The notes: generated by a model not told the origin, from the letters alone. Numbered from the stretch's first letter, positions 1,645 through 57,412 are shown. The stretch is DNA of 64,000 nt from a virus (IMGVR_UViG_3300034351_000048:16225-80224); one strand, 5' to 3'. Numbers and translations are program-made.

Positions 1645-1770
1645 AATTAGACTCCATCAACTATAAAAAACGCTCATTCACCAAAGGTAAACGTAACCAC
1701 AGCATTTAAATATAGTTAATGGATCAAAGAGGGTGGTTATTTCTCTTAAATCCATTAAAATAACTATACA
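1645..1770 (-). ncRNA. structured 5' leader, copy L1 (loop UAACCAC / bulge GUGGUUA; SD-sequestering switch)
   Basis: Hairpin 1711-1768; its 3' arm UCCAUUAACUAUA can alternatively pair with UAUAGUUGAUGGA over the SD; same architecture in four loci. Confidence 0.8.
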
Positions 1771-1775
1771 AATAA

Positions 1776-1803
1776 AATATAACATATTTATTTTAAAAGT
1801 CAA
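1776..1803 (-). promoter_or_regulatory. promoter TTGACT-N16-TATATT (TG-extended) driving leader L1
   Basis: Repeated promoter family; predicted +1 falls at the H1 5' end. Confidence 0.7.
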
Positions 1804-2093
1804 ATATTTAAGTTTAATTTTTTGAACCTCTCATCATTTATAACTTTATTTAGAGCTATTTTAAATAGCCTTGTAACATTCGATTTGTTACATTTTAAGA
1901 CCTTACTTATTCGAACATTCGAGTAATTTTCAAATACACGTAATCCGAATGCTAATTCTTGTTTTTCACTTAACTTTTCATCAATAATATCCTGAATTGT
2001 ATGCTTATTTGTTTTATCTTTGAAAAGTTGTCTTATTATATCAATTTTTTTTAATGTGCTTAAATTTTCCATGTTTTCTAACGTATTTTCCAT
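1800..2093 (-). CDS. sigma70 region-4-like HTH protein
   Basis: LSEKQELAFGLRVFENYSNVRISKVLKCNKSNVTRLFKIALNKV pattern. Confidence 0.65.
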   Translation of the reverse strand: MENTLENMENLSTLKKIDIIRQLFKDKTNKHTIQDIIDEKLSEKQELAFGLRVFENYSNVRISKVLKCNKSNVTRLFKIALNKVINDERFKKLNLNI

Positions 2094-2112
2094 TAAAATA
2101 TATCTCCTTTTA

Positions 2113-2562
2113 TTAAATTTTAGACCATTTTATTAAGCCCGTTAAGAATTCTACTAATTCACTTCTTTTTATTATAATTTCACTTTCCCTACTGAAAGCC
2201 CCGGATGCTATTTTTATATATTCAGATTTTTTAGGTTCAAAAGAATCTATAAAAGTACCTCTTATGGATGTTCCCCATGATATTTTATCATATAAGAAAG
2301 GCATATTGACCATTATAATGTAATTTTTGTAGTTCTTTTCGTTTTCTATATAGTGAAAAGTATCCTTATAAAGAATAGCTTCTAATACTTCGAGCATATC
2401 TTTTGCTAACATCTCATCCATTTCTCCATCATAGGTAGTAAAATCAAAAATTTCATTCCCTAAATGTTCTAATTTGCTATAATCGTCACCACCAACACAT
2501 GGATCATTTACCCAATCTTGGTAGTTTTTTTCAAGCATTTCAATATAATCATTCTCACTCAT
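2113..2562 (-). CDS. hypothetical phage protein
   Basis: ORF track; AAGGTG SD. Confidence 0.75.
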   Translation of the reverse strand: MSENDYIEMLEKNYQDWVNDPCVGGDDYSKLEHLGNEIFDFTTYDGEMDEMLAKDMLEVLEAILYKDTFHYIENEKNYKNYIIMVNMPFLYDKISWGTSIRGTFIDSFEPKKSEYIKIASGAFSRESEIIIKRSELVEFLTGLIKWSKI

Positions 2563-2580
2563 ATAAACACCTTCTATAAA

Positions 2581-3060
2581 TCATATTTTTTTTAACGTTT
2601 CAGATAAAAAATCTTTAGTTTTTTCTTCTTTTGATTTTATTAGAGCTTCTTCTTTTTCCTTTTCTTCTATATATTCGTCATACAACTTTATTGATTCTGG
2701 AATAGCTTCTTTGAAGATATTAAGTATTGTTTCAATAGATTTTTCATTTAAATAAGGATTAATAGAAGATTCCTCCCAAAATTCTTCATGTTTATAATAT
2801 TCAGTAAATCCTTTATCTTCTACATTTAGTTTAACATCTGGATTAGTAGGGTTATAATAATTCATTATCAACTCAATTTTTTCATCTAATTGGAATTTAT
2901 ATACATATTTGTTACCACTACACTCTCTATAAAAGTCAAACATTCCTTTTTTATAATATGGATATGGTAAATGGCAATTATATTTTTTCAAATGTTTAGC
3001 TCTAAATTTATCAAAAACGGTTTTAATTATACTAACATAATTTATATCACTATTATTCAT
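2581..3060 (-). CDS. hypothetical protein
   Basis: ORF track; GAGG SD; coupled to upstream ORF. Confidence 0.7.
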   Translation of the reverse strand: MNNSDINYVSIIKTVFDKFRAKHLKKYNCHLPYPYYKKGMFDFYRECSGNKYVYKFQLDEKIELIMNYYNPTNPDVKLNVEDKGFTEYYKHEEFWEESSINPYLNEKSIETILNIFKEAIPESIKLYDEYIEEKEKEEALIKSKEEKTKDFLSETLKKI

Positions 3061-3341
3061 TTAAGCCTCTCTATGAATTTATCTAAATACAATATTTTTT
3101 CATCAGATTCTAAAAAATCTATAAATTTTAGGTTCAAAACATCCAATTTTAAATTTAAACTATCGGTTTTATTATGGCATCCAAATACCTTGATCTCTAT
3201 ATCAAGTTTTTTATTAATAAATTCTAACCATATACTAAATTTCTTACATGGTTCTAACATAGGGATTTCATAAATTATAAAATTAAAATTTATCAAATTA
3301 TCTAAATTATATACAACATCATTAATAATAATGAATCGCAT
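3057..3341 (-). CDS. hypothetical protein
   Basis: ORF track; GGAGG SD. Confidence 0.7.
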   Translation of the reverse strand: MRFIIINDVVYNLDNLINFNFIIYEIPMLEPCKKFSIWLEFINKKLDIEIKVFGCHNKTDSLNLKLDVLNLKFIDFLESDEKILYLDKFIERLK

Positions 3342-3473
3342 TCAAACCTCCAAAATTCATGAATATACTATAAAAATAATAAAAAATTTACAAAAATACA
3401 AAAAATTTTACAAAAAAATTTGTTTTAATTTAAAAGTGTTATTATTTTAATATATATAGTTAAAGGAATTTTA

Positions 3474-5177
3474 ATGATTGATGTTTTTAATAAGTTATTA
3501 CAAATAAACTCAGGTAAAAAGATATCTTTAAGTAAGAAAGAGATACAACAATTACCTATAGAATTACAATATGAGTTATATAAACAACGTATTGATTATT
3601 TTACGAGGGATTTTTTAGATTTATTTCTATATAAGCACCATAGGCGGTGGATTAATCATATAGACACACATAAAAATTCTTTATTAATGGCTCCAAGAGA
3701 TCACGGTAAAAGTGAAACAGTGGGTAAAGCATTAGTTACACATAAGATATGTTTTAATCTTAATATACGAATTTTATTTATATCTGAAACAGTAGATAGT
3801 GTAGCGTTAAAATCTTTAAATCAAGTAAGACACGAATTAGAATTTAATGTAGAATTATTGGAATTTTTTAGAAAATATTATAAAAATCCAAGTTTTTCTT
3901 TTAGATTAAGAGGTAATACGTGGACTCAATCAGATTTTTTAGTAAATAGAACAAAGAACTTGAAAGAAAACACTGTTCACGCAGCTGGGGCTAAGACATC
4001 TATTACAGGCCAACATTATGATTTGATTATATGCGATGATATTATATCTGATAAGAGTGTAAGAGTAGAGAAACAAAGGGAAATTTTAAGAGAATGGTTT
4101 TCTAAAACATTAATAAACTTATTAGTAGATACAGAAGATTCTAAAATATGTGTAATAGGAACTCCAAAACATTATGATGATATATATAAAACATTAGAAG
4201 AGGGAAATGTATTTTCTGTATTAAGAGACAAAGCTATTATAGAAGGTGATTTAAATTCTGAGTATTATCAATATATTATAGATGAAAAAAATGATAGTGT
4301 GAAGGTTGTATTTCCACATGAAGAAGATAAATTAAGATATAAATTATTATGGCCTTATAATGAGAAAACAGGGCATGGTAAAACTATAGAAGCTTTATTA
4401 TTAAAAAAATATACGATGGACTCTATTGATCCAGGTCAATTCACACGTGAAATTCAGTGTGAAATTCTTGATGATGATTTATCTCTTTTTAGTTATTCTT
4501 TATTAGATTCGGCTAAAGACATACATCTTTCTTATATAGATGATATAAAAGAATTACCTAATTGGTATAGTAGTAAAAACATTCGATATATAATTCAATC
4601 TTGGGATTTGGCAGTAGTGTCTGATAAAAATAGAGCTACTCAAAGAGACACCGATTATACAGTTGGGATTACTTTTGGATTAGATGAGAATTTCAATAAA
4701 TATCTTTTAAATATATTTAGAGATCGTGGATTATCTCAATATGACTTAAAATCTAAAATATTTGAATTAGCAACTATTTTTAACCCTGATGCGGTTATAA
4801 TCGAAAGAAATGCGGCTCAAGATTTTATGGTTCAAGAATTGGCTGCGAGTACTAATATTCCTATATACCCACATACAACTACTAAAATGAATAAAAGCGA
4901 TAGTCTAAGAGGTCTTTTACAATTATGGCATACAAACTTATATAACCATAAGATAAAATTTCCTTATCATACAATGCAAGATAAGCGTAAAACAGATATT
5001 ATTTTTAATGAGTTACATCGATATGGAAGTGAAAAACACGATGATACTATAATGTCTATATGGTTTACGTTGTATTTTATAAGTAATAGTGAATTAATGA
5101 AAGCTTATAGAGAAACCCATGCTTTTCAGAGACCTACAAGGTCAAATAGACCGCAAATCCAAAGAGGGAAGCTATAA
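3474..5177 (+). CDS. terL: terminase large subunit
   Basis: Walker A APRDHGKS, Walker B LIICDD, VIGTP coupling motif, RNase H-like SWDLA...DYT...IERN...HDD. Confidence 0.95.
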   Translation: MIDVFNKLLQINSGKKISLSKKEIQQLPIELQYELYKQRIDYFTRDFLDLFLYKHHRRWINHIDTHKNSLLMAPRDHGKSETVGKALVTHKICFNLNIRILFISETVDSVALKSLNQVRHELEFNVELLEFFRKYYKNPSFSFRLRGNTWTQSDFLVNRTKNLKENTVHAAGAKTSITGQHYDLIICDDIISDKSVRVEKQREILREWFSKTLINLLVDTEDSKICVIGTPKHYDDIYKTLEEGNVFSVLRDKAIIEGDLNSEYYQYIIDEKNDSVKVVFPHEEDKLRYKLLWPYNEKTGHGKTIEALLLKKYTMDSIDPGQFTREIQCEILDDDLSLFSYSLLDSAKDIHLSYIDDIKELPNWYSSKNIRYIIQSWDLAVVSDKNRATQRDTDYTVGITFGLDENFNKYLLNIFRDRGLSQYDLKSKIFELATIFNPDAVIIERNAAQDFMVQELAASTNIPIYPHTTTKMNKSDSLRGLLQLWHTNLYNHKIKFPYHTMQDKRKTDIIFNELHRYGSEKHDDTIMSIWFTLYFISNSELMKAYRETHAFQRPTRSNRPQIQRGKL

Positions 5178-5476
5178 TGAAATACAAATATTTTAGATAT
5201 ATAGAATCAGGTGTTATACAACCCCTTGATGATTTAGATAATATTAAAGAATTAAAGAAAGATAGGAATATAGAATTATTATCCACACACCAAATTCAAG
5301 AAGAAATTTATGAAGTTATAAAAGAAACAAGGTTATTGTATAAAATTAGGAATAAAAAGAAATTGCTTGAAACTTGTATTGAACGTGTTAATTTTTATGT
5401 AGGATTAGATTTTGATGAATTTGATAAAGAATTTTCATGTTTTTACAACTATATCGTATCTAAAATATACACGTAA
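5177..5476 (+). CDS. hypothetical protein
   Basis: ORF coupled to terL (TAATG). Confidence 0.65.
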   Translation: MKYKYFRYIESGVIQPLDDLDNIKELKKDRNIELLSTHQIQEEIYEVIKETRLLYKIRNKKKLLETCIERVNFYVGLDFDEFDKEFSCFYNYIVSKIYT

Positions 5477-5541
5477 TTATTTTAAATTTTAAATTTATTA
5501 TAATTTTAATTATATTTATAAACAAAATAAAGGATGGAAAT

Positions 5542-5781
5542 ATGGATACAAATAAAACTTTTATATGGGATTTGTTTTTTAAGTTGTTTGATACAGCAGT
5601 AGGAACAATTATAATAATGGCTTGTTATTTTAGCTATTATTTAACATTAGAAATTCAAGAATGTATACAAGCAAAAGAATTTTTAACAGGTGAAAACTTT
5701 GTTATGAGCTTAATTTCTTTAGGTGTATTAATTGGAAGTATTGTAACAGCTGTTAAAAAGACAGTAGATAAGAATGCTTGA
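5542..5781 (+). CDS. small two-TM membrane protein (holin-like topology)
   Basis: Two hydrophobic segments and a basic C-terminus. Confidence 0.5.
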   Translation: MDTNKTFIWDLFFKLFDTAVGTIIIMACYFSYYLTLEIQECIQAKEFLTGENFVMSLISLGVLIGSIVTAVKKTVDKNA

Positions 5782-5959
5782 AATTAAATGCTGTCATATC
5801 TGTAAATATTTTAAAAAGTGTAAAATTGTAAAACAAATACAGAGAAAAGAATCTAATTTAAAGAAAAAAACTGATTTTGGTAAATTGTTTTGTATAGAAT
5901 TTGAAAAAATAAAAAGGATGGGAAGAGACTATAATGGAAAAGACAGAACAAACGAATAA
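5774..5959 (+). CDS. small Cys-rich (Zn-binding-like) protein
   Basis: CCHICKYFKKC...FC motif. Confidence 0.55.
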   Translation: MLEIKCCHICKYFKKCKIVKQIQRKESNLKKKTDFGKLFCIEFEKIKRMGRDYNGKDRTNE

Positions 5960-7742
5960 AACTAATAGCAATGTAAGACTAAAGGTGATTTCTAAGTCTA
6001 CACAATCAACTTTAGCTACTTATTTTGTAACTTCAAATGATATTGTGGATGGGGGTATTTTAGCTCCCATTTTTAATGAAAATTTGTATGATTTGATAAA
6101 TGATTCAGCCCCTTTCTCAATTTCTATACGAACAATTGCCAAATATACATGCGATAATGGGTTTAAGTTAGTATTAAAACAAAAAGAGCATGAAGAATTG
6201 ATAAAACAAAGTGAAAAATTAAAACGTAGGATAGAAGAATTACAACAACGACAATACAATTTAAATACTGAATTAGAAACAATAAAAAACGAAATTGGCA
6301 AATCCAATAATACAGTTACAAATGATGAAATACTTAAAGCAGAGGAAGATATAACTACACAAATATCTATATTACAGCATGAATTAAACGAGGCCCTCGA
6401 TAAGGAACGCTATGAAGAAGAAATAAGAAAAGAAAAAGCTCATATAGAGAATATACTGAAAAATATTAATCCTGAAAAATCTATAAATACCTTATTAAAA
6501 GAGGGATTAATACAAGGTTTGATTTATGGGTATACCGGATATGAGGTTGTTTTCAATTCTTTAAAAGATAGATTCCAATTAATTAGAATACCTACGCATG
6601 AATTAAGAATAACACAAAGAGATAGGGAATTTACAACATATAAAATTGAAGATGAAAATGGAAATGAAGTAGAAATGGATTGGAGATTTAGGAAATATGT
6701 TCAATATCAAGGAAATTTAGATATAACTGATAGCACTAAGTTTTCTACAGTTTATTTTAAAGATATAAACGATCCAAGAAATTTGAATTACACAACAGGA
6801 GAATATACTACAGAAACTCTACCAGATAATGTAGAAGCTAATCCTTGTATGTTTTTGAATTTTGGTATATTACAAGATAGAGAATACCCTTATCCTATAT
6901 GGTTAGGTGGATTCAATGATATAATGGGTTTCTATTACGCTACAAAATTAAATAAAAACTGGTTTGAAGATGGCATGCTTGTATCTATGGCTGTTGTTGT
7001 CGATGGTGTTCTTGATGAGGATACATACAATGAATTAACCACATTATTAGATTCGGCTAAAGGTATAGAGAACTCGGCAAAACTGATTGTAATAGAAAAC
7101 CTACAAAAGAACAACTCAGGATCTACAGTAGGATTAAATTTTAATTCAGGTATGGATAATAAATTTAATGTGAGTTTTGAAAAATTACCTGCTATGGATT
7201 TAAAAGATGGGCAGTTCTTAGAATACATTAGACAAACAATTAAAAATATTCGTATGTTGTTTAATATCCCTGCTATTTTACTTGGATTAGAAGAAAGTTA
7301 TAACAGAAATACTGCGATAATGGCGGTTGAAATGGCTAATCAGCAGTTTCAATCGTATCGATCCGAATTAGAAAACATGGTAAATAGAATACTTAAAGAA
7401 ATAGGGATAAAATACCATGAATTTAAGCTTAATACTCCAAACATTACCGATTATAAAGAAGTTGTTGAGATGCTTAAACCTTTTATAGAAAATGATATCA
7501 TACCTGTTAAGAATATACATGATATTTTTAATGAAATATTTAATACCGATGTTAAAGTAGAAGGTGAGGAAGATTTATTAATTTCTGAATGGAAAAATGA
7601 ACGTATTACAGAATTTGATAATATGAATAACACGGAAGAATCTAATGAAAATAGCATTGAAATACCTGAAAATGTTCAAAATGAAATCGGTAAAGTGTTA
7701 CAAAAACATAATATAAACTATACATTTTTTAAAATAAAGTAA
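5934..7742 (+). CDS. portal protein (PBSX/HK97-like)
   Basis: Position after terL; NKNWFEDG, KDGQFLEY...IRMLFNIPAILLG...YNRNTA motifs. Confidence 0.9.
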   Translation: MEKTEQTNKTNSNVRLKVISKSTQSTLATYFVTSNDIVDGGILAPIFNENLYDLINDSAPFSISIRTIAKYTCDNGFKLVLKQKEHEELIKQSEKLKRRIEELQQRQYNLNTELETIKNEIGKSNNTVTNDEILKAEEDITTQISILQHELNEALDKERYEEEIRKEKAHIENILKNINPEKSINTLLKEGLIQGLIYGYTGYEVVFNSLKDRFQLIRIPTHELRITQRDREFTTYKIEDENGNEVEMDWRFRKYVQYQGNLDITDSTKFSTVYFKDINDPRNLNYTTGEYTTETLPDNVEANPCMFLNFGILQDREYPYPIWLGGFNDIMGFYYATKLNKNWFEDGMLVSMAVVVDGVLDEDTYNELTTLLDSAKGIENSAKLIVIENLQKNNSGSTVGLNFNSGMDNKFNVSFEKLPAMDLKDGQFLEYIRQTIKNIRMLFNIPAILLGLEESYNRNTAIMAVEMANQQFQSYRSELENMVNRILKEIGIKYHEFKLNTPNITDYKEVVEMLKPFIENDIIPVKNIHDIFNEIFNTDVKVEGEEDLLISEWKNERITEFDNMNNTEESNENSIEIPENVQNEIGKVLQKHNINYTFFKIK

Positions 7743-7933
7743 TAGAATATATTACTTATCAATCCTTAACGCAAATCTTAAAAAATAATTAAAAAAATTC
7801 AATAATTTTTACAAATCTTTTCAATACAAGGGTATAATACAGTTTAAGTTTGTATATTATATGTTTTTATTTTACTATAGTATATATTAAAATGTTATAT
7901 TACATATAGTTAAATTTAAATTGGAGAAATTCT

Positions 7934-8926: not shown

Positions 8927-8946
8927 GAGCAAAGGAGTTTTAAATT

Positions 8947-35770: not shown

Positions 35771-36144
35771 TATTTATTCTCCTTATTTGAAATCTTTTCC
35801 ATAAAATTTTCTAATACACTTTTACATATAAATAACATATCGTTTTGTGTATAAAAATCTTCGTAAAATTTGATTTTTATTTTTCTTATTTCGACAAATT
35901 TAGATAAATTCTCATCTTCATAAATATTTTCTATAATTTCAAAATGTGAATCATTTATATCTATAAATCCATGACTGAATATGATTTCATATGATTTCTC
36001 ATTTTCATAAAAATATTCTAAATATAAATATTGAGCTTTATCAGAAAAAGACATATCTCTTTCTATCTTAATATTTGGGTTATATTTATATATTATATTT
36101 CTGAATTCATTTTTTGTCTTATGTATAAAATCTAAATTATCCAT
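35770..36144 (-). CDS. hypothetical protein
   Basis: Coupled ORF with AAGGAG SD. Confidence 0.7.
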   Translation of the reverse strand: MDNLDFIHKTKNEFRNIIYKYNPNIKIERDMSFSDKAQYLYLEYFYENEKSYEIIFSHGFIDINDSHFEIIENIYEDENLSKFVEIRKIKIKFYEDFYTQNDMLFICKSVLENFMEKISNKENK

Positions 36145-36914
36145 TATCGATTCTCCTTACCGAATAATTCAGAAGCTAAATCATACAAATCTTTTAATTT
36201 ACCATTTTGATCTATAATATCTAATTTTGTTAATTTACCTGTTTCTTTTTGTTTTCTTTCTCTTGCGTATACATCAAAATGATATCTATACTTGAACTGT
36301 AAATATAACTTTTTCCAAGTATCATGCATACTCAAATATTTAGTTTGAGCGTATGTTCTAACAATAAGATTAATTTTTGATCTTGTAGTTAATTCATTTG
36401 CATTGTCATGAGAAAGGGGTAATTCATTAAAAGTATTCTCGTTTTCTTCCTGAACTTGTTTTATAGAATTTACATCTTCTTGTAATTTTAGCATGTTTTC
36501 TTCATGTTCAACTAATTTATTTACACAAGCTTGTAAAGCATATATATTAGACAAATCAGGCCTTTCTATTTGTTTTTCTTGTATTTCTTTTAATTTAAAG
36601 TAACTTTTAACAAGTTTATTATAAACATCCCATGCCTCAGGAGTCCCAATACTTTTAGCGTGTTTTAAGGCTCCTGATTCTGTCCATAGATATATAGGGC
36701 GTTTTCCATTTTTGTTATCTTGAAATTCACGATAACTATTATCACTAAATGATATAATCAAATAATCAATATTTTCAATATATTTCTCATTGTTTCTATT
36801 AAAATTGTAACTTATAATTTTTGTATCAACACCATAAAATTCTGCTAATTCTTTAGTTGTTAATACAATAGTGTCATTATATTGTTTTTGATTTAATTTT
36901 GAAATGTCGGTCAT
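36144..36914 (-). CDS. antirepressor-like protein, ORF6N domain + distinct (ORF6C-like) C-terminus
   Basis: N-terminus closely similar to the 895-1644 gene; true start 36914 (AGGAG SD, MTDISKLNQKQY). Confidence 0.85.
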   Translation of the reverse strand: MTDISKLNQKQYNDTIVLTTKELAEFYGVDTKIISYNFNRNNEKYIENIDYLIISFSDNSYREFQDNKNGKRPIYLWTESGALKHAKSIGTPEAWDVYNKLVKSYFKLKEIQEKQIERPDLSNIYALQACVNKLVEHEENMLKLQEDVNSIKQVQEENENTFNELPLSHDNANELTTRSKINLIVRTYAQTKYLSMHDTWKKLYLQFKYRYHFDVYARERKQKETGKLTKLDIIDQNGKLKDLYDLASELFGKENR

Positions 36915-37020
36915 GTTAAGACTCCTATTAAATAAAATATCATTCATTATAAAATGAAAGGGGATAAAAATTTCATTTAATAGGATTAGAGAATTATCCC
37001 GGTTTCCTAATCCTATTAAA
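36915..37020 (-). ncRNA. structured 5' leader, copy L2 (loop GGGAUAA / bulge UUAUCCC)
   Basis: Perfect 14-bp stem 36976-37020; its 3' arm alternatively pairs 16 nt over the SD. Confidence 0.8.
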
Positions 37021-37080
37021 AATCTATGTAAAATAAACCCCGAAGTATATAGATCGTAAATGAGGTGGTATCGGGGTTTA
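37021..37080 (-). other. GC-rich hairpin (UAAACCCCGA/UCGGGGUUUA) with potential pseudoknot, between tRNA-Leu and L2
   Basis: 10-bp perfect stem followed by UUUU; loop GAUCUAU complementary to downstream AUAGAUU. Confidence 0.55.
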
Positions 37081-37136
37081 TACTAAAAAATATTAAAGGA
37101 GATCAAATGAAAAAATTAATTTTCAATATTAGAAAA

Positions 37137-37279: not shown

Positions 37280-37362
37280 AATATACTAAATTAGATTAAA
37301 ACAGTCAAATTTATTTTAAATAAAATTTAAAAGTTGACTTTTTATAATCATTTTAGTATATT
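37280..37362. promoter_or_regulatory. back-to-back divergent promoters (minus 37280-37308; plus 37334-37362)
   Basis: Both TTGACT-N17-TATATT. Confidence 0.8.
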
Positions 37363-39285: not shown

Positions 39286-39313
39286 TTGACTTTTAAAATA
39301 GTTTTATTATTAT
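39286..39313 (+). promoter_or_regulatory. promoter driving leader L3
   Basis: TTGACT-N16-TATTAT immediately 5' of H1. Confidence 0.65.
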
Positions 39314-39319: not shown

Positions 39320-39442
39320 GTATAAACTAAAAATTAACCAGATTAAGATATATACCGACTTTCTTAATCTTGTTAGTTTATATGTTGTCGGTACATCCAC
39401 CTTTGGTGGGTGAACATATTTTCTAACAAGGTGATAAAAACC
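39320..39442 (+). ncRNA. structured 5' leader, copy L3 (loop UACCGAC / bulge GUCGGUA)
   Basis: AGAUUAAGA/UCUUAAUCU stem; CUUGUUAG alternatively pairs CUAACAAG at the SD. Confidence 0.8.
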
Positions 39443-40126
39443 ATGTCAAATTTAATAAAAATAACAAATAACATCTCAATTGAAGAAATACTCTACAAAG
39501 GACAAAGAGTATTAACTTCAAAGCAACTTGCCGAAATTTACAATTGTAATGAAAGGCAAATCCGTCAAAACTTTAATAATAATAAGGATAAATTTATTGA
39601 AGGTAAACATTATGTTAAGCTTATTGGAGAAGATTTAAAAGAATTTAAGAAAGATATTAAAACAAAAAATTTAGTAAATAAATACACACCTGAATTAAAT
39701 TTATTCACTTTGAAAGGTTGCTTATTACAAAGTAACTTCATTACATCTATCAATGATAAAAATTTACAGTCTATTTATAAATATTTTGGGGTTGAAAATA
39801 ATCTTACAATAGGTAATTCTATTCAAAGAACAGAGTATTATTATTTAGATGAACTTAGAAAGGCTTTCGATGGAATATTTGATATAACTTCACAATTGAC
39901 TATAGGAATGTATAGAATAGATTATTACATACAGAAATACAATATAGCAATAGAATGTGATGAAAACAATCATAACGATAGAGATAGAGACTATGAAATA
40001 CAAAGAGAAAAGTTTATAAAAAAAGAATTAGGTTGTAAAATTATACGATTTGATCCTAAATTTATATCTATTGGAGAATTAATAAATAAAATCTTATGTG
40101 CTATAAAGGAGATGGATAATGAATAG
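39443..40126 (+). CDS. ORF6N domain fused to DUF559/Vsr-like endonuclease domain
   Basis: YKGQRVLTSKQLAEIY; Q..IG.YRID.Y....IAIECDE..H....R...I...LGC.IIRF; true start 39443. Confidence 0.8.
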   Translation: MSNLIKITNNISIEEILYKGQRVLTSKQLAEIYNCNERQIRQNFNNNKDKFIEGKHYVKLIGEDLKEFKKDIKTKNLVNKYTPELNLFTLKGCLLQSNFITSINDKNLQSIYKYFGVENNLTIGNSIQRTEYYYLDELRKAFDGIFDITSQLTIGMYRIDYYIQKYNIAIECDENNHNDRDRDYEIQREKFIKKELGCKIIRFDPKFISIGELINKILCAIKEMDNE

Positions 40127-43140: not shown

Positions 43141-43974
43141 ATGAGAGAATTTAATAGAAATGAGTTTGAATCTTTAGTAAAAATCCAAAACAATAATAAG
43201 TTACAAATAGATACTATAAATGCCCGTGATCTATGGGAATATTTGGAAGTGGATACTCGATTTAACGATTGGATAAAGAATCGTATTTATAAATATCAAT
43301 TTGTTGAATCACACGATTATATATGCCTTACTAAAAAAAAAGAAACGCGTAGAAATGACGGTCAAAAAGGCTCTGCAGTCATTACTGAATACCATATTTC
43401 TATTAATATGGCAAAAGAGTTGTCTATGGTAGAAAACAGTAATCTTGGTAGGGCAGTAAGATTATATTATATAGAATTAGAAAAAGAATTAAAAGAAATT
43501 AGAAATAATGATGATAGACAAACGGCTTTATGGGAAACAATAAGAGTAGAATCTAAAATAGAAAGAAAAGATTTTACTGATTCTATACAATCTTTAGTAA
43601 ATTATGCAATTGATATGGGTGCGAGTGATGGCGTTAAATGGTATTATAAGCACATTACAAGTGCTTTAAACAAAGCTCTTTTTAGAATAGAATCTTTACA
43701 AAAAGTTCATAAAAACCTAAGGGATGAAATAAGTTATATTCAATTAAGTCATATTATCACATTAGAAACTATCCTTAGAAATAGAATATTAGAAATGGTA
43801 AATATGGGGTTTGAATATAAGACAATATATGAGAATTTAAAGGAATTATGTATACAACAAGGAAAACTTATAGGCAAAGAAAAACCACGATATATTACAG
43901 AAAAAGAATACAAATCATGTATGAATAAAAAGGAATTAAAATTATATAGCAAAGATCAAAATTTATTATTTTAG
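43141..43974 (+). CDS. AntA/AntB antirepressor-family protein
   Basis: NARDLWEYLEV.TRFNDWIK.RI..Y.F.E..DY...MAKELSMVE....GR..R.YYI..EK. Confidence 0.88.
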   Translation: MREFNRNEFESLVKIQNNNKLQIDTINARDLWEYLEVDTRFNDWIKNRIYKYQFVESHDYICLTKKKETRRNDGQKGSAVITEYHISINMAKELSMVENSNLGRAVRLYYIELEKELKEIRNNDDRQTALWETIRVESKIERKDFTDSIQSLVNYAIDMGASDGVKWYYKHITSALNKALFRIESLQKVHKNLRDEISYIQLSHIITLETILRNRILEMVNMGFEYKTIYENLKELCIQQGKLIGKEKPRYITEKEYKSCMNKKELKLYSKDQNLLF

Positions 43975-47917: not shown

Positions 47918-47948
47918 TCGAAAAAACTAATTATTTATATGTAAATAT

Positions 47949-48083
47949 TTGATTTTTAAAATAATTTTATTATATTTAGTATATTACTACCTTAATATTT
48001 ATTTTATGGGGCTCATTATGTATTATGTAATGGGCTCTTATTTATAGGGTAGCAATAAAATATAAATATTGAGGTATTCAATT
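47949..48083 (+). promoter_or_regulatory. promoter plus SD-sequestering structured leader (architecture differs from L1-L4)
   Basis: UACCUUAAUAUUUA pairs UAAAUAUUGAGGUA (SD); internal 13-bp G-U-rich hairpin. Confidence 0.65.
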
Positions 48084-48854
48084 ATGCATAACAATTCTAT
48101 CCAATTATTTAATTTCCAAGAAAATGAAGTAAGAACATTTACGGATGAAAACAATAATATATGGTTTTGTTTAAAAGATATTTGTGATATTTTAGAGTTA
48201 AGTAATCCAAGAAAAGTAGCTTCCGATTTAGACAAAGACGACGTAACTATTAGTTACGTAGGGGTGAAAACAGGCGTGAAAAAGGATGGAACAGATGCTG
48301 TTCAAAATATTGAAATGAACTTTATAAATGAGAGCGGTTTATATCAAGTAATATTCAAAAGTCGTAAACTTATAGCTAAGAAATTTAGTAAATGGATAAC
48401 AAGTGAAGTAATCCCATCTATTAGAAAAACGGGTCAATACGGCATAGAGAACTTATCAAGATTAGAAATTCTTAAAATAGCATTAGATAGTGAAGAAAAG
48501 AGACTACAATTAGAAGAAGAAAACAAAAAATTGCTTCCAAAAGCACAGATTTTTGATGATTTTCTTGAAAGTATTAATACGATTAGTGTTGGAGAATTAG
48601 CGAAATTATTATGTAAAAATGGTTATAATACAGGTCAAAAAAGATTATTCAAATTTTTAAGAGAAAATAAAATTCTTATGGAAAAAGATAACCTCCCCTA
48701 TCAAGAATATATAGACAGGGGTTATTTTGAGGTATCTACTTTCATAATTAATCATACACATAGTAATTACAAAGAGACTAAACCACAAACTAAAGTTACA
48801 AAGAAAGGTTGTTTGTTTATACGGAATTTATTTATTAAAGCAACTTCTATGTAA
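48084..48854 (+). CDS. Bro-N + KilAC antirepressor
   Basis: FNF...EVRT...WF..KD.C..L.L.N, INESGLY..IF.SR...AK.F..W.T.EVIPSIRKTG.Y; KilAC C-terminus; true start 48084. Confidence 0.92.
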   Translation: MHNNSIQLFNFQENEVRTFTDENNNIWFCLKDICDILELSNPRKVASDLDKDDVTISYVGVKTGVKKDGTDAVQNIEMNFINESGLYQVIFKSRKLIAKKFSKWITSEVIPSIRKTGQYGIENLSRLEILKIALDSEEKRLQLEEENKKLLPKAQIFDDFLESINTISVGELAKLLCKNGYNTGQKRLFKFLRENKILMEKDNLPYQEYIDRGYFEVSTFIINHTHSNYKETKPQTKVTKKGCLFIRNLFIKATSM

Positions 48855-50554: not shown

Positions 50555-50566
50555 GGAGAATTAATT

Positions 50567-50908: not shown

Positions 50909-52686
50909 ATTACGAATTTATAACTACAAAAGAAAATTTATATAAAAGTATAGATAAATTAAGTAATAATAATATAATAGCGGTTGATACTGAAACAACA
51001 GGATTAAGCATTTTTGAAAATAATTTACTTTTAATCCAAATTTCAGATAAAACAAACAATTTTATATATGATTGTAGAAAATTAAAAGAAGATATAGGAA
51101 ATTTAAAGTATATATTAGAAAATGAGGATGTAATTAAAATACTACATAACGCCAAATTTGACTATAAGTTTTTAAAATATAAATATAATATAGAAATGAA
51201 TAATATATATGATACACAAGAAACTGAAAAATTAATTCAAAACGGATTACAAAAGAGAGGGTTTGCTTTAAAGGATTTAATAAGTAAATATTTAAAGATT
51301 GAAATAGATAAAACAGAAAGAGAATCATTTATAGATTTTAAAGGTGAATTTAATCAATCACAATTAGAATATGCCATTAAGGATGTTTTATATTTGTTTG
51401 ATATTAGGAAAGAACAATTAAAAAATTTGGAATTATTCAAATTAGAAAATGTCCATAAAATGGAAATGGCTTTAATACCAGTTATTGCCGAGATGGAAAT
51501 TAATGGAATGAAAGTAGACAAGGAAAATTGGAAAAAGTTAATAACAAAATACGAAAAATTATTAAAAGAAAAAAAGGAATTTTTAGAAGATTACATAAAA
51601 AATAGTGGTGTTTTGGATGAAAAATTTAACCAAATGGATTTATTCTCATCTGATTATAATTTCGATATAAATTTAGATTCTCCTAAACAATTATCGGATA
51701 TACTTAAAAAGCTTGATTACAAATGTAGCTCTACAAATATAGATGAATTAGAAAAATATAAAGATGATAAATTTATAAAGCAGCTTATAGAATATAAAAC
51801 ATATTCAAAAATCCTTAGTAGTTTTGGGGAATCTTTCTTAGAAAAAATCAACAAAAAAACAGGTAGAATCCATACAGAATTCTTTCCTTTGGATATGCTC
51901 GCGGGTAGAATAGCCTCTCGACACCCTAATATGCAACAAATACCAAATACAGAAGAGTTCAGAAGTTTATTTATATCTGAAAAAGGATATAAATTAATAG
52001 ATGCCGATTATTCACAAGCCGAGTTAAGAATATTAGCCGAATTTAGCAATGATAAAAATATGTTGAAAGCTATAAATGATGGATTAGATTTACACAAAGC
52101 AACCGCAAGTATGATGTTTAATATAAAGTTTGATGATATAACAAAATCGCAAAGAAGTCAAGCAAAAGCTATTAATTTCGGATTAGCTTATGGAAGAGGT
52201 GCGGGTAGTTTATCGGGTCAACTTGGGGTAAGTTATAAAGAAGGTAAGAAATTAATTGACTTATATTTCAAAAATTATTATTCTGTAAAATATTGGTTAG
52301 ACAAACAAAAAAAACTTGCATTTGATAATTTATCAGTTAGAACTATTTCAAACAGGATAAGAAGATTTAAATTAAAGTATGATAATGAAAAAGACTTTCA
52401 ATCACAAAAGGCAAGTATAGAAAGACAGGGCGTAAATACACCTATACAAGGAAGTAATGCCGATATTACAAAAATGGCTTTGATATTATTACATAACAGA
52501 CTAAAAGGAAAGAAAGCTTTTATAATAAATACTGTCCATGACGAAATTATTGTAGAATGTAAAGAGGAAATTTCAGATGAAATAAGTAAAATTGTAAGAG
52601 AATCTATGATTGACGGTGCAAGATATTTTCTAAAAAAAGTATCTATGGAAGTAGATTTAAATGTAAACACTTACTGGGAGCATTAG
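50905..52686 (+). CDS. polA: family A DNA polymerase (3'-5' exonuclease + polymerase; no 5'-3' exonuclease)
   Basis: DTETTGL, HNAKFD, YA..D, DADYSQAELR, R.QAKAINFGLAYG, N.PIQGS.AD, VHDE. Confidence 0.96.
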   Translation: MNYEFITTKENLYKSIDKLSNNNIIAVDTETTGLSIFENNLLLIQISDKTNNFIYDCRKLKEDIGNLKYILENEDVIKILHNAKFDYKFLKYKYNIEMNNIYDTQETEKLIQNGLQKRGFALKDLISKYLKIEIDKTERESFIDFKGEFNQSQLEYAIKDVLYLFDIRKEQLKNLELFKLENVHKMEMALIPVIAEMEINGMKVDKENWKKLITKYEKLLKEKKEFLEDYIKNSGVLDEKFNQMDLFSSDYNFDINLDSPKQLSDILKKLDYKCSSTNIDELEKYKDDKFIKQLIEYKTYSKILSSFGESFLEKINKKTGRIHTEFFPLDMLAGRIASRHPNMQQIPNTEEFRSLFISEKGYKLIDADYSQAELRILAEFSNDKNMLKAINDGLDLHKATASMMFNIKFDDITKSQRSQAKAINFGLAYGRGAGSLSGQLGVSYKEGKKLIDLYFKNYYSVKYWLDKQKKLAFDNLSVRTISNRIRRFKLKYDNEKDFQSQKASIERQGVNTPIQGSNADITKMALILLHNRLKGKKAFIINTVHDEIIVECKEEISDEISKIVRESMIDGARYFLKKVSMEVDLNVNTYWEH

Positions 52687-52694
52687 GATATAAT

Positions 52695-53383
52695 ATGGAA
52701 ACAAATAAAATATATTTGGGGGATTGCTTAGAAGTCATGGGGGCTTTTCCTAATAATTCTATAGATTGTATTGTAACTGATCCTCCTTATATGATTAATT
52801 ATAAAACAGGATACCGTAAGAATAAGAATCATGATTTTTGTAATGTTATAAATAATGATGATAATTTTGATTTAATTGTAACCATAATGCCTGAAATGTA
52901 TAGAATATTAAAAGATAATACTGCAATTTATATGTTTTGTAATTCTACCTATATAGATAAATTTAAGGTTGAATTTGAAAAATATTTTAATTTAAAAAAT
53001 ATAGTCGTTTGGGTAAAAAATAACTGGACAGCGGGGGATTTAAAAAACGCATTTGGTAAACAATACGAGTTTATATTGTATGGAAACAAGGGGGCTTGTA
53101 ATATAAAATCAAAAAGGTATTCAGATATATGGAATTTCAAAAGAATAGTTGGTAGTAATCAATTACATCAAAATCAAAAACCAGTATCTTTAATACAAAG
53201 ATGTTTATATCAAGTAGCAACGAGGGCGACGTTGTATTCGATCCTTTTATGGGTAGTGGAACTACCGCGGTAGCTTGTATACAGAATAACCGTCAATATA
53301 TAGGATGTGAGATATACAAAGACTATTACGATATTATTATGAATAGGATAAAACAAGAAAATCAACAAGAGAGGTTGTTTTAA
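52695..53383 (+). pseudogene. beta-class N6/N4 DNA methyltransferase split by a -1 frameshift
   Basis: DPPY and H.NQKP in frame 1 (52695-53273); SSNEGDVVFDPFMGSGTT in the -1 frame (53201-53383). Confidence 0.8.
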
Positions 53384-53392
53384 GGAGATTTT

Positions 53393-54028
53393 ATGTTATT
53401 TAGAGTAGATAGGAATAATTATTTTGATAAACCAAAAGATAACGCCATATTTACACCGAAAATGGTGATTGATATGATTATGTATATTTTAGATGAAAGA
53501 TTTAATAATTTTAATCCGGAATATATTTTAGAACCAAATTTCGGATCGGGTAATATTTTAAATCCATTATTAGAAAAATATCCAAAATCAAAATTCTATG
53601 CTATAGAGATGAACAAAAAAACTTTTGATAAATTTGATAAAAAAAATAAAAATGTTAAATTTATAAATAAAGATTTTTTAATCTCAGATATTTATCAAGA
53701 ATTTGATTTATGTATATGTAATCCACCTTTCAATTGCTTTTATGGTGAAAAGGTTAAAAAGGGAGCTTGGAAAGACTTTTTAAATAAAACATTCAACTTG
53801 TTATCAGATAAGGGTAAGATGATATATATTTTACCTAATTATTGGTGTATGAATTCTCCTAAATATATTATAGAGTATGTGAAATATATGCCAAGTATGA
53901 ATTTTATACCATTGCCAAAGGATGTTTTTTATAAGAATTCTATTCCATGCCAAATAGTAATTTTTGATAAAGAGAATAAAGATTTTAAATTACACGAAAT
54001 TTATAAGAAATTGTATAGGATTGATTGA
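53393..54028 (+). CDS. gamma-class N6-adenine DNA methyltransferase (small, lacks obvious TRD)
   Basis: FTP, LEPNFGSG, NPPF. Confidence 0.85.
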   Translation: MLFRVDRNNYFDKPKDNAIFTPKMVIDMIMYILDERFNNFNPEYILEPNFGSGNILNPLLEKYPKSKFYAIEMNKKTFDKFDKKNKNVKFINKDFLISDIYQEFDLCICNPPFNCFYGEKVKKGAWKDFLNKTFNLLSDKGKMIYILPNYWCMNSPKYIIEYVKYMPSMNFIPLPKDVFYKNSIPCQIVIFDKENKDFKLHEIYKKLYRID

Positions 54029-54029
54029 T

Positions 54030-54761
54030 ATGGGAAAAATAAATAAGAAGTTCAATAAAAAAGAAATAAATGAAAAGCAAATGGAGATGTTAAAAAGATA
54101 TATAGATACGGGTAGAACGGATATTAAACTTAGAAATGAAATAGTTTTATCATACACACCCTTGTTGATGTGGATTTTATCACGTAAGCTTAATTTTTTT
54201 AAATTGTTTCCAAATTTAATTGATAGTGAAGATTTATATCATTGGTGCGTATTAGGCATGATACAAGCTTTAAAAACATTCAATATAGTTGAGGGTAAAG
54301 ATCAAAACATAATATATTTGACGTATAAGATCATGGGTGATTCTTTAACATATGGTATTAGATACATAAGAGGTTCCCAAAAAAATGCTAAACAAACTAA
54401 ACATTTAGTAAAAAATTTAAAAGATTTGGAAACGAATAATTTTTTTCATTATTTAACACCTATAAAAATCACTTCTAAATTAAGTATAAAAGATATAAGG
54501 ATAAATATCGAAAAAGATTATATAAAAAAAGAAAGAGACCGAGATATATTCAAAGTATTATATAAAATATGCCCAGATAGAATACCTTTAAAAATATTAA
54601 AAATGCAATATATTTATGGGTATCAACTTAAAGAAATAGCAAAAATTTTACAAATTAACCTTTCAACAATAGGAACATTAAAAAGAAGATACTTAGAGAA
54701 ATTAAGAGAACGTTTAAATGATCCTAAAAATCAAGAAATAAAAGAATATTTATTATCTTAA
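54030..54761 (+). CDS. sigma70-family RNA polymerase sigma factor
   Basis: RNEIV..Y..L...I...EDL......G.I.A...F (region 2); LKEIAKIL.I..STI......L.KLR (region 4); likely start 54030. Confidence 0.8.
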   Translation: MGKINKKFNKKEINEKQMEMLKRYIDTGRTDIKLRNEIVLSYTPLLMWILSRKLNFFKLFPNLIDSEDLYHWCVLGMIQALKTFNIVEGKDQNIIYLTYKIMGDSLTYGIRYIRGSQKNAKQTKHLVKNLKDLETNNFFHYLTPIKITSKLSIKDIRINIEKDYIKKERDRDIFKVLYKICPDRIPLKILKMQYIYGYQLKEIAKILQINLSTIGTLKRRYLEKLRERLNDPKNQEIKEYLLS

Positions 54762-54777
54762 AATAAAGGAGATTTTT

Positions 54778-56481
54778 ATGAATATTGTATCAATCAACGA
54801 ATTAAAGTCTTATGTTAATATTTTAGATGTTGTTTCAGATTATGTTTTTGATATACAAAAGATAGGGAAAGATTATAAATGTATATGCCCTTTCCATAAT
54901 GAAAAGACACCCTCATTTATTATAAGCCCTGAAAAGAATTTATATAATTGTTTTGGATGTGGGGAAAGTGGCGATGCTTTTACTTTTGTGATGAAACACG
55001 AGAATTGCTCTTTTATAGAAGCTTCTAAAATAATAGCAAGATACTACAACTTAGAATTAGATATAAAGGTATCTAAAACTAATGAACTTAAGAAAATATA
55101 TTATAGAATAAATGAATTAGCTATGAACTATTTCCACGATAGTTTAATAGAAGATTATAAAGAAGCTATTAATTATTTAAAGGATAGAGCCTTGCATCTA
55201 TCAATTCCTACACAAAAAATAGGATATTGTGATAATAATTCAGATGGGTTGTATTTATATTTAAAAAATCATGGTATTGAAGATAAATATATTTTTAATT
55301 CTGATATTTTATACAAAAAAAATGATTATATTTATTCAAAGTTTCATGATAGGATAATATTCCCTATAAGAGATAAAAACAAAAATGTTATAGCGTTTAT
55401 TGGTAGAACTATTGATGAAAATACCCAACCAAAATATTTACATTCTAAAGATACTATATTTTTTAGAAAATCTGAAATGTTTTATAATATAGAAAGTGCT
55501 AATTTAAAGGATTATGTTATTATAACAGAGGGGAATATAGATACATTAAAAATCAAACAAAAAAGTGATTTTAATGTTGTCAGTTGTTTAGGAACTAAAA
55601 TATCAGATTACCAACTGAAATATATTAAAAAACATTATGAAAAAGTATACTTAATATTTGATTCAGACAAAGCGGGTAAAACTGCGATGTTTAACCTTGT
55701 TGATTTATTTTATAAATACGGAATATCTTTATATATTGTTGATTTAGGGGAAGGTTTAGACCCAGATAATTATATAGATAAATACGGTATAGACCTACTT
55801 AAAATAAAAATATTCAATGAATCTATATCGGGCATACAATTTAAAATAAATTCTTATTTATCTAAATATGATGTAAAGGATTCTAATCAAAAGATAGAAT
55901 TTATAAAAAAAGTCATGAATTTTGGGAATAAATTAGATAAATTTTATCAACAAGAAATTTTACATATATTGTCAAAACTTTTAAATTTGAATAATGAAGA
56001 TTTAAATTACTATGCTTTTAAAAACACGTCAAAAAACACCTCAAATTTGAATGTTTCCAATGCAAGTAATACCAAAACACTTAGAAATGAAAAAGAGCTT
56101 AATTTGATATCAATTTTGTTGTATTATGAGGAATCTATTAATTTTTTAGATTCTATTAAAGAAAATCTGTTTAAAAATTTAGAATTTCGTAAAATCTTTG
56201 ATATCATGAAAGAAAATTTGGAAGAAAAATTAAAGATTGACGATATCTCATTTATTTTAGATAAAGATTTGAAAAAAGAAATATTTAAATTTGAAACAAA
56301 TGAACCAATAAGTAATGAAATTTTTAAACTGATTTACCAATTAAAATTAATGAATATTGATGAACAAATAAATGAATTAAGAGTAGAGAATCAAGAAACT
56401 AAAATAAAATTTGATATAAATAAATTACAATTACTTGATTTATACAAAGAAAGAGAAAGAATAGTAAAATTAATAGGATAA
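54778..56481 (+). CDS. dnaG: DNA primase
   Basis: CPFHNEKTPSF...CFGCG, RIIFPI, F.GR, PKYL.S, TEG..D, FDSD.AG, DPD. Confidence 0.96.
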   Translation: MNIVSINELKSYVNILDVVSDYVFDIQKIGKDYKCICPFHNEKTPSFIISPEKNLYNCFGCGESGDAFTFVMKHENCSFIEASKIIARYYNLELDIKVSKTNELKKIYYRINELAMNYFHDSLIEDYKEAINYLKDRALHLSIPTQKIGYCDNNSDGLYLYLKNHGIEDKYIFNSDILYKKNDYIYSKFHDRIIFPIRDKNKNVIAFIGRTIDENTQPKYLHSKDTIFFRKSEMFYNIESANLKDYVIITEGNIDTLKIKQKSDFNVVSCLGTKISDYQLKYIKKHYEKVYLIFDSDKAGKTAMFNLVDLFYKYGISLYIVDLGEGLDPDNYIDKYGIDLLKIKIFNESISGIQFKINSYLSKYDVKDSNQKIEFIKKVMNFGNKLDKFYQQEILHILSKLLNLNNEDLNYYAFKNTSKNTSNLNVSNASNTKTLRNEKELNLISILLYYEESINFLDSIKENLFKNLEFRKIFDIMKENLEEKLKIDDISFILDKDLKKEIFKFETNEPISNEIFKLIYQLKLMNIDEQINELRVENQETKIKFDINKLQLLDLYKERERIVKLIG

Positions 56482-56484
56482 TTT

Positions 56485-57141
56485 ATGAATTATATTTATA
56501 ATGATGATTGTTTTGAAGTAATTAATAATTTAAACTTAAACAATAAAAAAATATGCTTGCTCACGGATCCTCCTTATGGAATTTTAGGAGGTTCTAAATC
56601 TATAGGAGGTTCTAAATTATACCATGCTAATAATTATGATTGTAGTTGGGATAATAACAGATTGACGAAAGAACAAATTAATTTATTAATTTCTTTATCC
56701 AATAAGGCATTTATTTTTGGTTATAATTACATATCTGATTTATTACCTCCTACAAATTCTTTAATTGTATGGGATAAAAAGTGCAAAAATAATTGGTTTG
56801 ATAATTTTTCAGATGGGGAAATAATATGGACAAATATAAATACCCCATTAAGAATCTATAGGCATTTATGGATGGGGGCATTAAGAAAAGGTAAGAACAC
56901 CAAAAGAATACATCCTACACAAAAACCAGTAGAATTAATGGGTTGGATAATAGAAAATTTTACAAAAAATGATGATATAATATTTGACCCTTTTATGGGT
57001 TCAGGTTCTACTATAATTGCATGTATAGAATTAAATAGACAATATATAGGTATTGAAAAGAATAAACATTATTTTGATATAGCAAAAAATAGAATAGATG
57101 AATATAGATATAATAAAGATTCTCAAAATAACTTGTTTTAA
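56485..57141 (+). CDS. beta-class N6/N4 DNA methyltransferase
   Basis: TDPPYG, HPTQKP, DPFMGSGST. Confidence 0.92.
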   Translation: MNYIYNDDCFEVINNLNLNNKKICLLTDPPYGILGGSKSIGGSKLYHANNYDCSWDNNRLTKEQINLLISLSNKAFIFGYNYISDLLPPTNSLIVWDKKCKNNWFDNFSDGEIIWTNINTPLRIYRHLWMGALRKGKNTKRIHPTQKPVELMGWIIENFTKNDDIIFDPFMGSGSTIIACIELNRQYIGIEKNKHYFDIAKNRIDEYRYNKDSQNNLF

Positions 57142-57144
57142 ATT

Positions 57145-57172
57145 TTGTATTTTTTAATTTTATTGTTATATT
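57145..57172 (+). promoter_or_regulatory. promoter TTGTAT-N16-TATATT (TG-extended)
   Basis: Lies 6 nt upstream of the tRNA-like RNA. Confidence 0.6.
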
Positions 57173-57178
57173 ATATAT

Positions 57179-57300
57179 AGAATAATAGCAGAATTGGCAA
57201 ATGCCTTAATTGAGATATAATCTAATTTGATAAAAAACGATTTTGGTTATATTGAGATTAAGCCTCTTTGAGGGTGGGGGTTCAAGTCCCCCTTATTCTT
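57179..57300 (+). ncRNA. tRNA-like RNA (class II cloverleaf) with extended hairpin replacing the anticodon loop
   Basis: Acceptor AGAATAA/TTATTCT, D-arm GCAGAATTGGCAAATGC, variable arm CCTC-TTT-GAGG, T-arm GGGGG-TTCAAGT-CCCCC. Confidence 0.8.
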
Positions 57301-57301
57301 A

Positions 57302-57412
57302 TAATAGGATTAGAAAACAAGATCGTTTCTCTAATCCTGTTAGAAATATTACGATCTCGTTTGTTTTAAATTAAAAATAATTCAAATGAATATTGTCTAA
57401 CAGGAGGTATTA
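57302..57412 (+). ncRNA. structured 5' leader, copy L4 (loop AGAUCGU / bulge ACGAUCU)
   Basis: UAAUAGGAUUAGA/UCUAAUCCUGUUA stem; UCCUGUUAGA alternatively pairs UCUAACAGGA at the SD. Confidence 0.8.

Follow-up and report, generated by a model that had tools for sequence, protein, structure and literature searches.

The genome of an uncultured phage encodes five structurally related RNA leaders, each preceding a gene for a KilA-N-type DNA-binding protein, and in each a seven-nucleotide loop sequence pairs with a seven-nucleotide bulge further downstream. Four of these leaders (L1 to L4) lie in the window, that is, the whole 64,000-nucleotide stretch analysed (IMGVR_UViG_3300034351_000048:16225-80224), and the fifth (L5) lies 6.6 kb before it. 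The structures, their covariation, the complementarity of each leader to its own Shine-Dalgarno (SD) region, the energy balance of two alternative folds and the strand concerned are established by the comparisons described below. The function proposed for the leaders is that of bistable translational switches, in which a pseudoknot private to each copy would favour the fold with an open SD; the case for this reading is about evenly balanced.

Architecture of the leaders

The leaders are about 110-125 nucleotides (nt) long. Hairpin H1 has 15 pairs and an 11-nt loop in all copies, giving a gap-free MAFFT alignment, and the loop heptamer always occupies loop positions 4-10, in an invariant layout of 3 nt, heptamer and 1 nt. 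Hairpin H2 consists of a lower stem, a 7-nt bulge on the 5' strand and an apical stem with C-G closure. In each of the four window leaders bulge and loop heptamer are perfectly complementary, with a gap of 24-32 nt between the two. A U always precedes the bulge and the C of the C-G closed apical stem follows it, and because these flanking columns are invariant the loop-bulge pairing stops at 7 bp in every copy. RNAfold z-scores for L1 to L4 are -4.1, -1.7, -3.8 and -3.5, respectively. The bulge of L2 is less clean, in that UAUC can pair alternatively with GAUA, and the L3 loop is closed by U.U, making it effectively 13 nt. The elements of the leaders are listed here in window coordinates, with scores from the covariance model R1 described in the next section.

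1642-1769 (-), leader L1, from the predicted +1 to the AUG of an ORF6N+ANT gene; R1 115 bits
1717-1757 (-), L1 H1: 5' arm 1757-1743, loop 1742-1732, 3' arm and anti-SD 1731-1717
1733-1739 (-), L1 loop heptamer UAACCAC
1694-1700 (-), L1 bulge heptamer GUGGUUA
1668-1707 (-), L1 inner H2: lower stem 1707-1701/1674-1668, apical stem-loop 1693-1675, flagged as terminator-like
1653-1665 (-), L1 SD-region strand, with GGAG at 1655-1652; its partner is 1723-1711 of the H1 3' arm
36912-37029 (-), leader L2, to the AUG of an ORF6N gene; R1 84.7 bits
36978-37018 (-), L2 H1: 5' arm 37018-37004, 3' arm 36992-36978
36994-37000 (-), L2 loop heptamer GGGAUAA
36961-36967 (-), L2 bulge heptamer UUAUCCC
36941-36960 (-), L2 apical hairpin, AU-rich and not terminator-like
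36922-36926 (-), L2 SD AGGAG, within the partner strand of the H1 3' arm
39320-39445 (+), leader L3, from the predicted +1 to the AUG of an ORF6N+DUF559 gene; R1 115 bits
39335-39375 (+), L3 H1
39353-39359 (+), L3 loop heptamer UACCGAC
39387-39393 (+), L3 bulge heptamer GUCGGUA
39394-39412 (+), L3 apical hairpin, flagged as terminator-like
39423-39432 (+), L3 SD-region strand CUAACAAGGU; its partner is 39367-39376 of the H1 3' arm
57302-57415 (+), leader L4, to the AUG of a Rha gene; R1 77 bits
57302-57342 (+), L4 H1
57320-57326 (+), L4 loop heptamer AGAUCGU
57351-57357 (+), L4 bulge heptamer ACGAUCU
57358-57388 (+), L4 apical hairpin: 6-bp stem, 19-nt loop, without a U tail
57396-57407 (+), L4 SD region, in which UCUAACAGG pairs with the H1 3' arm; AGGAGG at 57402-57407
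genome 9465-9584 (-), leader L5, before an AntA-domain gene; R1 49 bits

Covariation and the fifth copy

The loop-bulge pairing is confirmed in five related leaders. The fifth was found with R1, a model built from H1 and the inner part of H2 only and blind to the loop-bulge pairing, which on the whole genome gave the four window leaders at 77-115 bits and L5 at 49 bits. AT-rich terminator hairpins give spurious R1 matches of about 40 bits, and the E-values of the model are rough; the score of L5 is therefore insufficient alone, and it is the architecture that decides. The full architecture is present in L5, whose heptamer pair UGGGCAC/GUGCCUA forms seven pairs, one of them G.U, and the chance that its aligned heptamers would pair fully is ~2e-3.

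Aligned across the five copies, the pseudoknot helix shows pairing in 35/35 cells, and 7/7 of its pairs change on both sides. Over all helices 25/37 pairs change on both sides, values reached in 0/500 shuffles, and pairing is halved when the partners are slid by 1-3 columns. A detector that sought hairpins with 12 pairs or more and a complement of the loop 7-mer 18-50 nt downstream returned 5 sites in the genome, of which four are the leaders and one is a mirror image, versus 0-3, with a mean of 0.8, in shuffles. Among leader pairs, G.U outnumbers A.C by 18 to 4, which indicates that the structure is formed by sense-strand RNA; likewise, the G.U in the L5 pseudoknot means that this pairing is possible only in RNA.

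Anti-SD complementarity and the two alternative folds

The 3' arm of H1 finds its complement in the 28 nt preceding each AUG, and the resulting duplex covers the SD. This anti-SD helix has 10-18 bp and an energy of -11.7 to -17.6 kcal/mol (z -3.5 to -6.8), with 0-3/1000 shuffles as good. Two folds were compared by constrained folding, using nested energies that exclude the pseudoknot: fold A, comprising H1 and the inner H2, and fold B, comprising the full H2.

L1: fold A -31.4 vs fold B -28.7 kcal/mol
L2: fold A -22.4 vs fold B -21.1 kcal/mol
L3: fold A -31.7 vs fold B -27.7 kcal/mol
L4: fold A -26.9 vs fold B -20.5 kcal/mol
L5: fold A -24.1 vs fold B -29.0 kcal/mol

The two folds differ by 1-6 kcal/mol, and the cognate loop-bulge duplexes contribute -7.9 to -11.0 kcal/mol, whereas non-cognate duplexes are no stronger than -5.8 kcal/mol. 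With folds so nearly equal and a cognate duplex so strong, the 7-bp pseudoknot is large enough to decide between them, and the gap between cognate and non-cognate energies makes the five heptamer codes physically orthogonal.

An initial annotation of the window had described four leaders sharing this H1/H2 architecture, and every feature that it listed can be read in the sequence, including the perfect complementarity of the bulge to a loop heptamer 24-32 nt upstream and the C-G-closed apical stem that follows. The strong covariation that it claimed is retained in the independently found fifth copy, its pairing of the H1 3' arm across the SD region stands well outside the shuffled range, and its idea of a heptamer address code proves physically sound in terms of pairing energies. 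Its count, however, was one short: the four are real, but the family has five members, the last before an AntA gene.

A candidate translational switch in cis

The five paralogous leaders would act in cis on translation of the KilA-N-type gene behind each of them (ORF6N in three cases, Rha and AntA in the others). In fold A, H1 would keep the anti-SD, which is its own 3' arm, locked away, and the SD region would be free; in fold B, the H1 3' arm would pair with the SD region and close the long hairpin H2, leaving the SD sequestered. The 7-bp loop-bulge pairing, with a heptamer pair private to each copy, should be geometrically easy in fold A only and may supply the deciding free energy. Stacking of a loop helix on its hairpin is an established geometry of pseudoknots and kissing loops, and the layout of 3 nt, heptamer and 1 nt could allow the new helix to stack on H1 in fold A. 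In fold B, a tether of 7-9 nt would hold the heptamer at the base of a ~17-22-bp helix with the bulge on top. Formation of the pseudoknot would thus correspond to translation being on, and its prevention to sequestration of the SD; the switch might be flipped by a protein, by a competing RNA, or through 5' processing or decay of H1.

A precedent for such an arrangement is the 5' untranslated region of timP (RyfA), in the enterobacterial timPR type I toxin-antitoxin locus, where the SD is buried in a stable hairpin, the conformations are exclusive, and a covarying 7-bp pseudoknot between stem-loops SL1 and SL3 marks the translatable form and is essential for translation (Eleftheraki & Holmqvist 2024, PMC11228461). 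SD sequestration and a 7-bp covarying pseudoknot are both present in the phage leaders, and we infer that the pseudoknotted fold is their active conformer. Unlike timP, to which they have no sequence or Rfam relation, the phage leaders use a 7-nt bulge as the pseudoknot partner and, as the anti-SD, the 3' arm of the very hairpin whose loop forms the pseudoknot; they occur as five paralogues with differing pseudoknots in one genome, no antisense or antitoxin gene was found with them, and the host is probably Gram-positive.

The rep leaders of IncI-alpha, IncB and IncL/M plasmids (for instance, ColIb-P9 repZ and pMU720 repA), in which a pseudoknot is said to activate rep translation, offer a second comparison. 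There, as proposed here, a gene with a structured ribosome-binding site (RBS) is activated when a hairpin loop upstream pairs with a distal sequence, and a few loop nucleotides set incompatibility. The plasmid systems, however, require a leader peptide to be translated and a counter-transcribed RNA to act on the same loop, and their distal partner adjoins the RBS, whereas the partner in the phage leaders is a bulge 45-60 nt upstream of the SD. No credible leader open reading frame (ORF) with an SD and no consistent antisense promoter were found in the phage leaders. Short ORFs of 8-14 codons do occur in 4/5 leaders (L1, L2, L3 and L5), with the AUG in or beside the lower H2 stem, but they lack an SD in front and their frames and stops are unaligned, and they are therefore treated as chance. 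Weak antisense promoter-like sites (9/12) lie opposite L1 and L2 only, at about the chance rate.

Several points weigh against a bistable switch acting in cis. Once the pseudoknot is added, fold A would dominate in 4/5 copies, and in L5 the nested energies already favour fold B. By geometric estimate, the pseudoknot in fold B would be strained but not strictly impossible. In addition, the heptamers of L2 and L4 match at 1/7 and 1/7 positions although their H1 stems are 28/30 identical (Fisher p=3.5e-7), and a device that works only in cis gives no obvious reason for this divergence. Lastly, searches of viral, metagenome and bacterial collections found no homologue of the leaders elsewhere; the family is so far confined to one genome, and that a metagenomic one.

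If the mechanism is correct, the leaders represent a compact natural riboregulator of ~110 nt, built from a hairpin, an anti-SD and a 7-bp pseudoknot lock, in which seven base-pair changes rewrite specificity on a constant scaffold. The five variants would amount to a compensatory-mutation experiment carried out by nature within a single genome, and an example from a Gram-positive-type phage would join the few pseudoknot-gated translation switches, such as IncI/IncB rep and timP. The orthogonal design of the heptamers is of direct interest to synthetic biology.

Alternative explanations

The divergence of the heptamers is suggestive of a system that works in trans, resembling c4, CI and IsrK, although such a system is on balance unlikely. 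Here, a stable leader fragment, either the inner H2 with its bulge exposed or the whole terminated leader, would kiss the H1 loop of transcripts of the same gene, compete with the cis pseudoknot and shut off translation. The heptamer address would keep five circuits orthogonal, and the system could sense dosage or superinfection. The near-identical H1 stems of L2 and L4 with wholly different heptamers, the pattern in L1, L3 and L5, where the outer pairs are kept and the central triplet varies, and the weakness of non-cognate duplexes are all in keeping with this idea; the pattern of divergence hints at selection for orthogonality, which matters only if molecules meet in trans. Moreover, L2 directly follows a tRNA, and L4 a tRNA-like element, an arrangement that recalls the processing of c4 RNA, which is reportedly carried out by RNase P.

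The resemblance to the P1/P7 c4 antisense RNA and its relatives (P4 CI, N15 CA and Gifsy-1 IsrK) extends to layout. The c4 system, at least as its a1b1 element is presented in Weinberg et al. 2010 (PMC2864571; Rfam RF01695), likewise has a structured upstream complement, and the short isoform of IsrK acts in trans on its own read-through transcript (PMC4825925). In both c4 and the phage family, the leader of an antirepressor-type gene carries a short single-stranded recognition element together with a complement in a structured upstream hairpin, and a few covarying bases set specificity; an upstream complement of the a1b1 kind is present in all five copies, where the H1 loop heptamer complements the bulge, as an analogy of layout only. 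In contrast to c4, the phage leaders give no covariance-model match, have one heptamer in place of two elements (a' and b') with downstream targets a2 and b2, one of which covers the RBS, do not repeat the loop heptamer around the SD or start codon of any of the five genes, and have an SD that is blocked by the cis anti-SD, in a phage without a recognisable lysogeny module.

Other evidence also argues against action in trans. Inspection of the five genes by eye revealed no second target over any RBS or start codon, and the target loop is ~80 nt from the SD, so that any effect would still require the cis switch. Pairing in cis has a large kinetic and concentration advantage, and the lack of a consistent antisense promoter, of an Rfam C4 match and of lysogeny genes in the phage points the same way. 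It is rather unlikely that the heptamers serve as addresses for intermolecular kissing, with five orthogonal RNA-RNA channels flipping the cis anti-SD switch. Were this the case, each DNA-binding gene would have its own dosage or superinfection sensor, and a modular, re-addressable class of riboregulator would have evolved in nature.

Transcription attenuation, in which the inner H2 is an intrinsic terminator and loop-bulge pairing modulates read-through, seems improbable. The apical hairpin and U-rich tail of L1, L3 and L5 are terminator-like, where shuffles expect 0.0-0.1, but the apical hairpins of L2 and L4 are AU-rich or have a large loop, L4 has no usable U tract, and neither is called terminator-like. 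Even in L1, L3 and L5, several nt separate the G+C-containing stem from the start of the U run, which doubles as the 3' strand of the lower stem. Attenuation would also leave the anti-SD complementarity, highly significant as it is, unexplained, and the occurrence of H1, the anti-SD and the pseudoknot in 5/5 copies, against a terminator-like tail in 3/5, favours translational control.

There is similarly little likelihood that the leader is a constitutive element that does not switch, with the pseudoknotted 5' domain protecting the mRNA from 5'-end-dependent decay or marking a processing site and the anti-SD pairing merely damping translation of a toxic DNA-binding protein. In every predicted transcript, whether primary or tRNA-processed, H1 forms the very 5' end, in keeping with such a role, and the timP pseudoknot also raised mRNA levels (PMC11228461). 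However, the balanced energies of two exclusive folds in five diverged copies, combined with a 10-18-bp anti-SD helix, look designed, and the private heptamers would be left without a reason.

Finally, it is very improbable that the heptamer pairs are operator half-sites in DNA, each for a downstream protein with its own specificity: every downstream gene does encode a KilA-N-type domain and each copy has its own inverted repeat, but half-site spacings of 31 to 39 bp correspond to different helical phases, the L5 pairing needs a G.U, which in DNA would be mismatched, and the heptamers coincide exactly with the loop and bulge left unpaired by covarying, strand-specific RNA helices.

Downstream genes, promoters and the phage genome

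The genes behind the leaders, together with the promoters and tRNA features upstream, are as follows.

895-1644 (-), ORF6N + ANT (KilAC) gene behind L1
1776-1803 (-), L1 promoter TTGACT-16-TATATT, TG-extended
36144-36914 (-), ORF6N gene behind L2
37136-37221 (-), tRNA-Leu(UAA) upstream of L2, co-oriented and probably on one transcript with it
37280-37308 (-), promoter TTGACT-17-TATATT of the tRNA-Leu/L2 unit
39286-39313 (+), L3 promoter TTGACT-16-TATTAT
39443-40126 (+), ORF6N + DUF559 (Vsr-like) nuclease-like gene behind L3
57179-57300 (+), tRNA-like element adjoining L4
57413-58192 (+), Rha-family gene behind L4

Pfam confirms the ORF6N and Rha assignments originally made for the genes behind the four window leaders, namely ORF6N+ANT (L1), ORF6N (L2), ORF6N+DUF559 (L3) and Rha (L4), and identifies an AntA domain behind L5. 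L1, L3 and L5 begin ~7 nt after a promoter of the form TTGACT-16/17-TATATT/TATTAT, that of L5 being TTGACT-17-TATATT. At 37280-37362, two TTGACT-17-TATATT promoters are arranged divergently, back-to-back; as promoters of this type also head L1, L3 and L5, a single early promoter class is suggested for these units.

L4 begins 2 nt past the 3' end of the tRNA-like element at 57179-57300 (+). The acceptor stem of this element has 7 bp, the T-arm is canonical and the anticodon arm is ~58 nt longer than usual; the element scores 38.6 bits against the Rfam tRNA model, although ARAGORN makes no call. A strong promoter-like site (TTGGCA-16-TATAAT) lies inside it at 57194-57221.

The window, derived from mangrove metagenomes and with a G+C content of 23-31%, spans bases 16225-80224 of an IMG/VR virus record that is 80,224 bp long and carries direct terminal repeats. 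TerL has a best identity to GenBank phages of only ~23%. The closest homologue (P0002) shows 45% identity. A Gram-positive host is probable. The genome carries at least seven genes of the KilA-N type (ORF6N, Rha, AntA, Bro-N, ANT), and L3 is first in an operon with ORF6N-ANT, an O-like replication initiator and DnaB. The integrase, resolvase and HTH_3 repressor families gave no match in the whole 80,224-bp genome, and the phage is probably virulent. This absence, together with the position of L3 at the head of a replication operon, makes it probable that the genes behind the leaders are early genes of a virulent phage, encoding KilA-N-type DNA-binding proteins, and take no part in an immunity circuit. 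The antirepressor and immunity framing of the initial annotation is therefore doubtful and is best taken loosely.

Searches for relatives

Across the window, Rfam 15 (including C4, c4-2 and int-alpA) gave tRNA only at the gathering threshold. When the four leader regions were compared with Rfam at E<=10 with lax filters, no C4 match appeared and non-tRNA matches had E>0.1, far under the gathering threshold, in line with the novelty expected at the outset: no Rfam family matches even at this cutoff. The RNA family is new and uncatalogued, although its kind, a pseudoknot-gated leader that sequesters the RBS, is already known.

The expectation of many homologues upstream of ant, rha and ORF6N genes, on the other hand, was disappointed. 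R1 matched none of 160 distant ORF6N loci (80 viral and 80 from genomes) and none of the Rha/KilA upstream regions of BTP1, PVA1, Riker and Bak6; the rha leader of the P22-like BTP1 folds differently from this family. Nor is the architecture enriched upstream of ORF6N genes (0.135 vs 0.10 and 0.10 vs 0.085 per kb). No match was obtained by megablast against phages and plasmids, by comparison of the Ant, Rha and TerL proteins with IMG/VR, or with protein alignment A5 against JGI metagenomes, and GTDB genomes, IMG/VR and JGI metagenomes yielded no homologue of the leader family.

Pattern searches fared similarly. A DNA pattern for the H1 stem, being palindromic, gave 116+ chance matches and one partial look-alike (L020) that is a plain hairpin; a promoter plus apical pattern gave 0 matches; and an apical-hairpin pattern found 68 loci in viral and metagenome collections, none of which match R1. 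In 5 + ~450 sampled Bacillota/Clostridia genomes, R1 gave three matches at 34-41 bits, all rejected as terminator hairpins without a bulge or pseudoknot; two of them (L355 and L357) precede permease-like and membrane-protein genes. Upstream of a distant ORF6N gene in a Lachnospiraceae metagenome-assembled genome (L263:1425-1500), two palindromes, TAGTGCCA-N6-TGGCACTA, lie over a promoter; they are operator-like and unrelated to the leaders.

Other occurrences of heptamers and related upstream regions

Between tRNA-Leu and L2, at ~37040-37084 (-), is a G+C-rich hairpin of 9-11 bp that has a 27-nt open loop and ends in a U tail. Both UACCAC and ACGAUCU occur in the loop, the latter being the L4 bulge heptamer and complement of the L4 H1 loop; the genome-wide count of ACGAUCU equals the chance expectation, so that any cross-talk between the L2 unit and L4 is hypothetical. 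The L3 bulge heptamer, GTCGGTA, recurs within the Rha gene at 57551-57557 (+), and codons 2-3 of the gene behind L2, at 36911-36906 (-), read ACCGAC, which is 6/7 of the L3 loop heptamer; both may be chance.

A possible sixth copy before the Ant gene at 43141 was rejected, since only a terminator and an SD are found there. The leader of the BroN-ANT gene at 48084-48854 (+) has a different structure and is not a member of the family. Its upstream region, 47940-48083 (+), shares the promoter box TTGATTTTTAAAATA with L1 and L3, and the leader contains the direct repeats GGGCTCATTATGTA / ATGGGCTCTTATTTA within a long imperfect hairpin.

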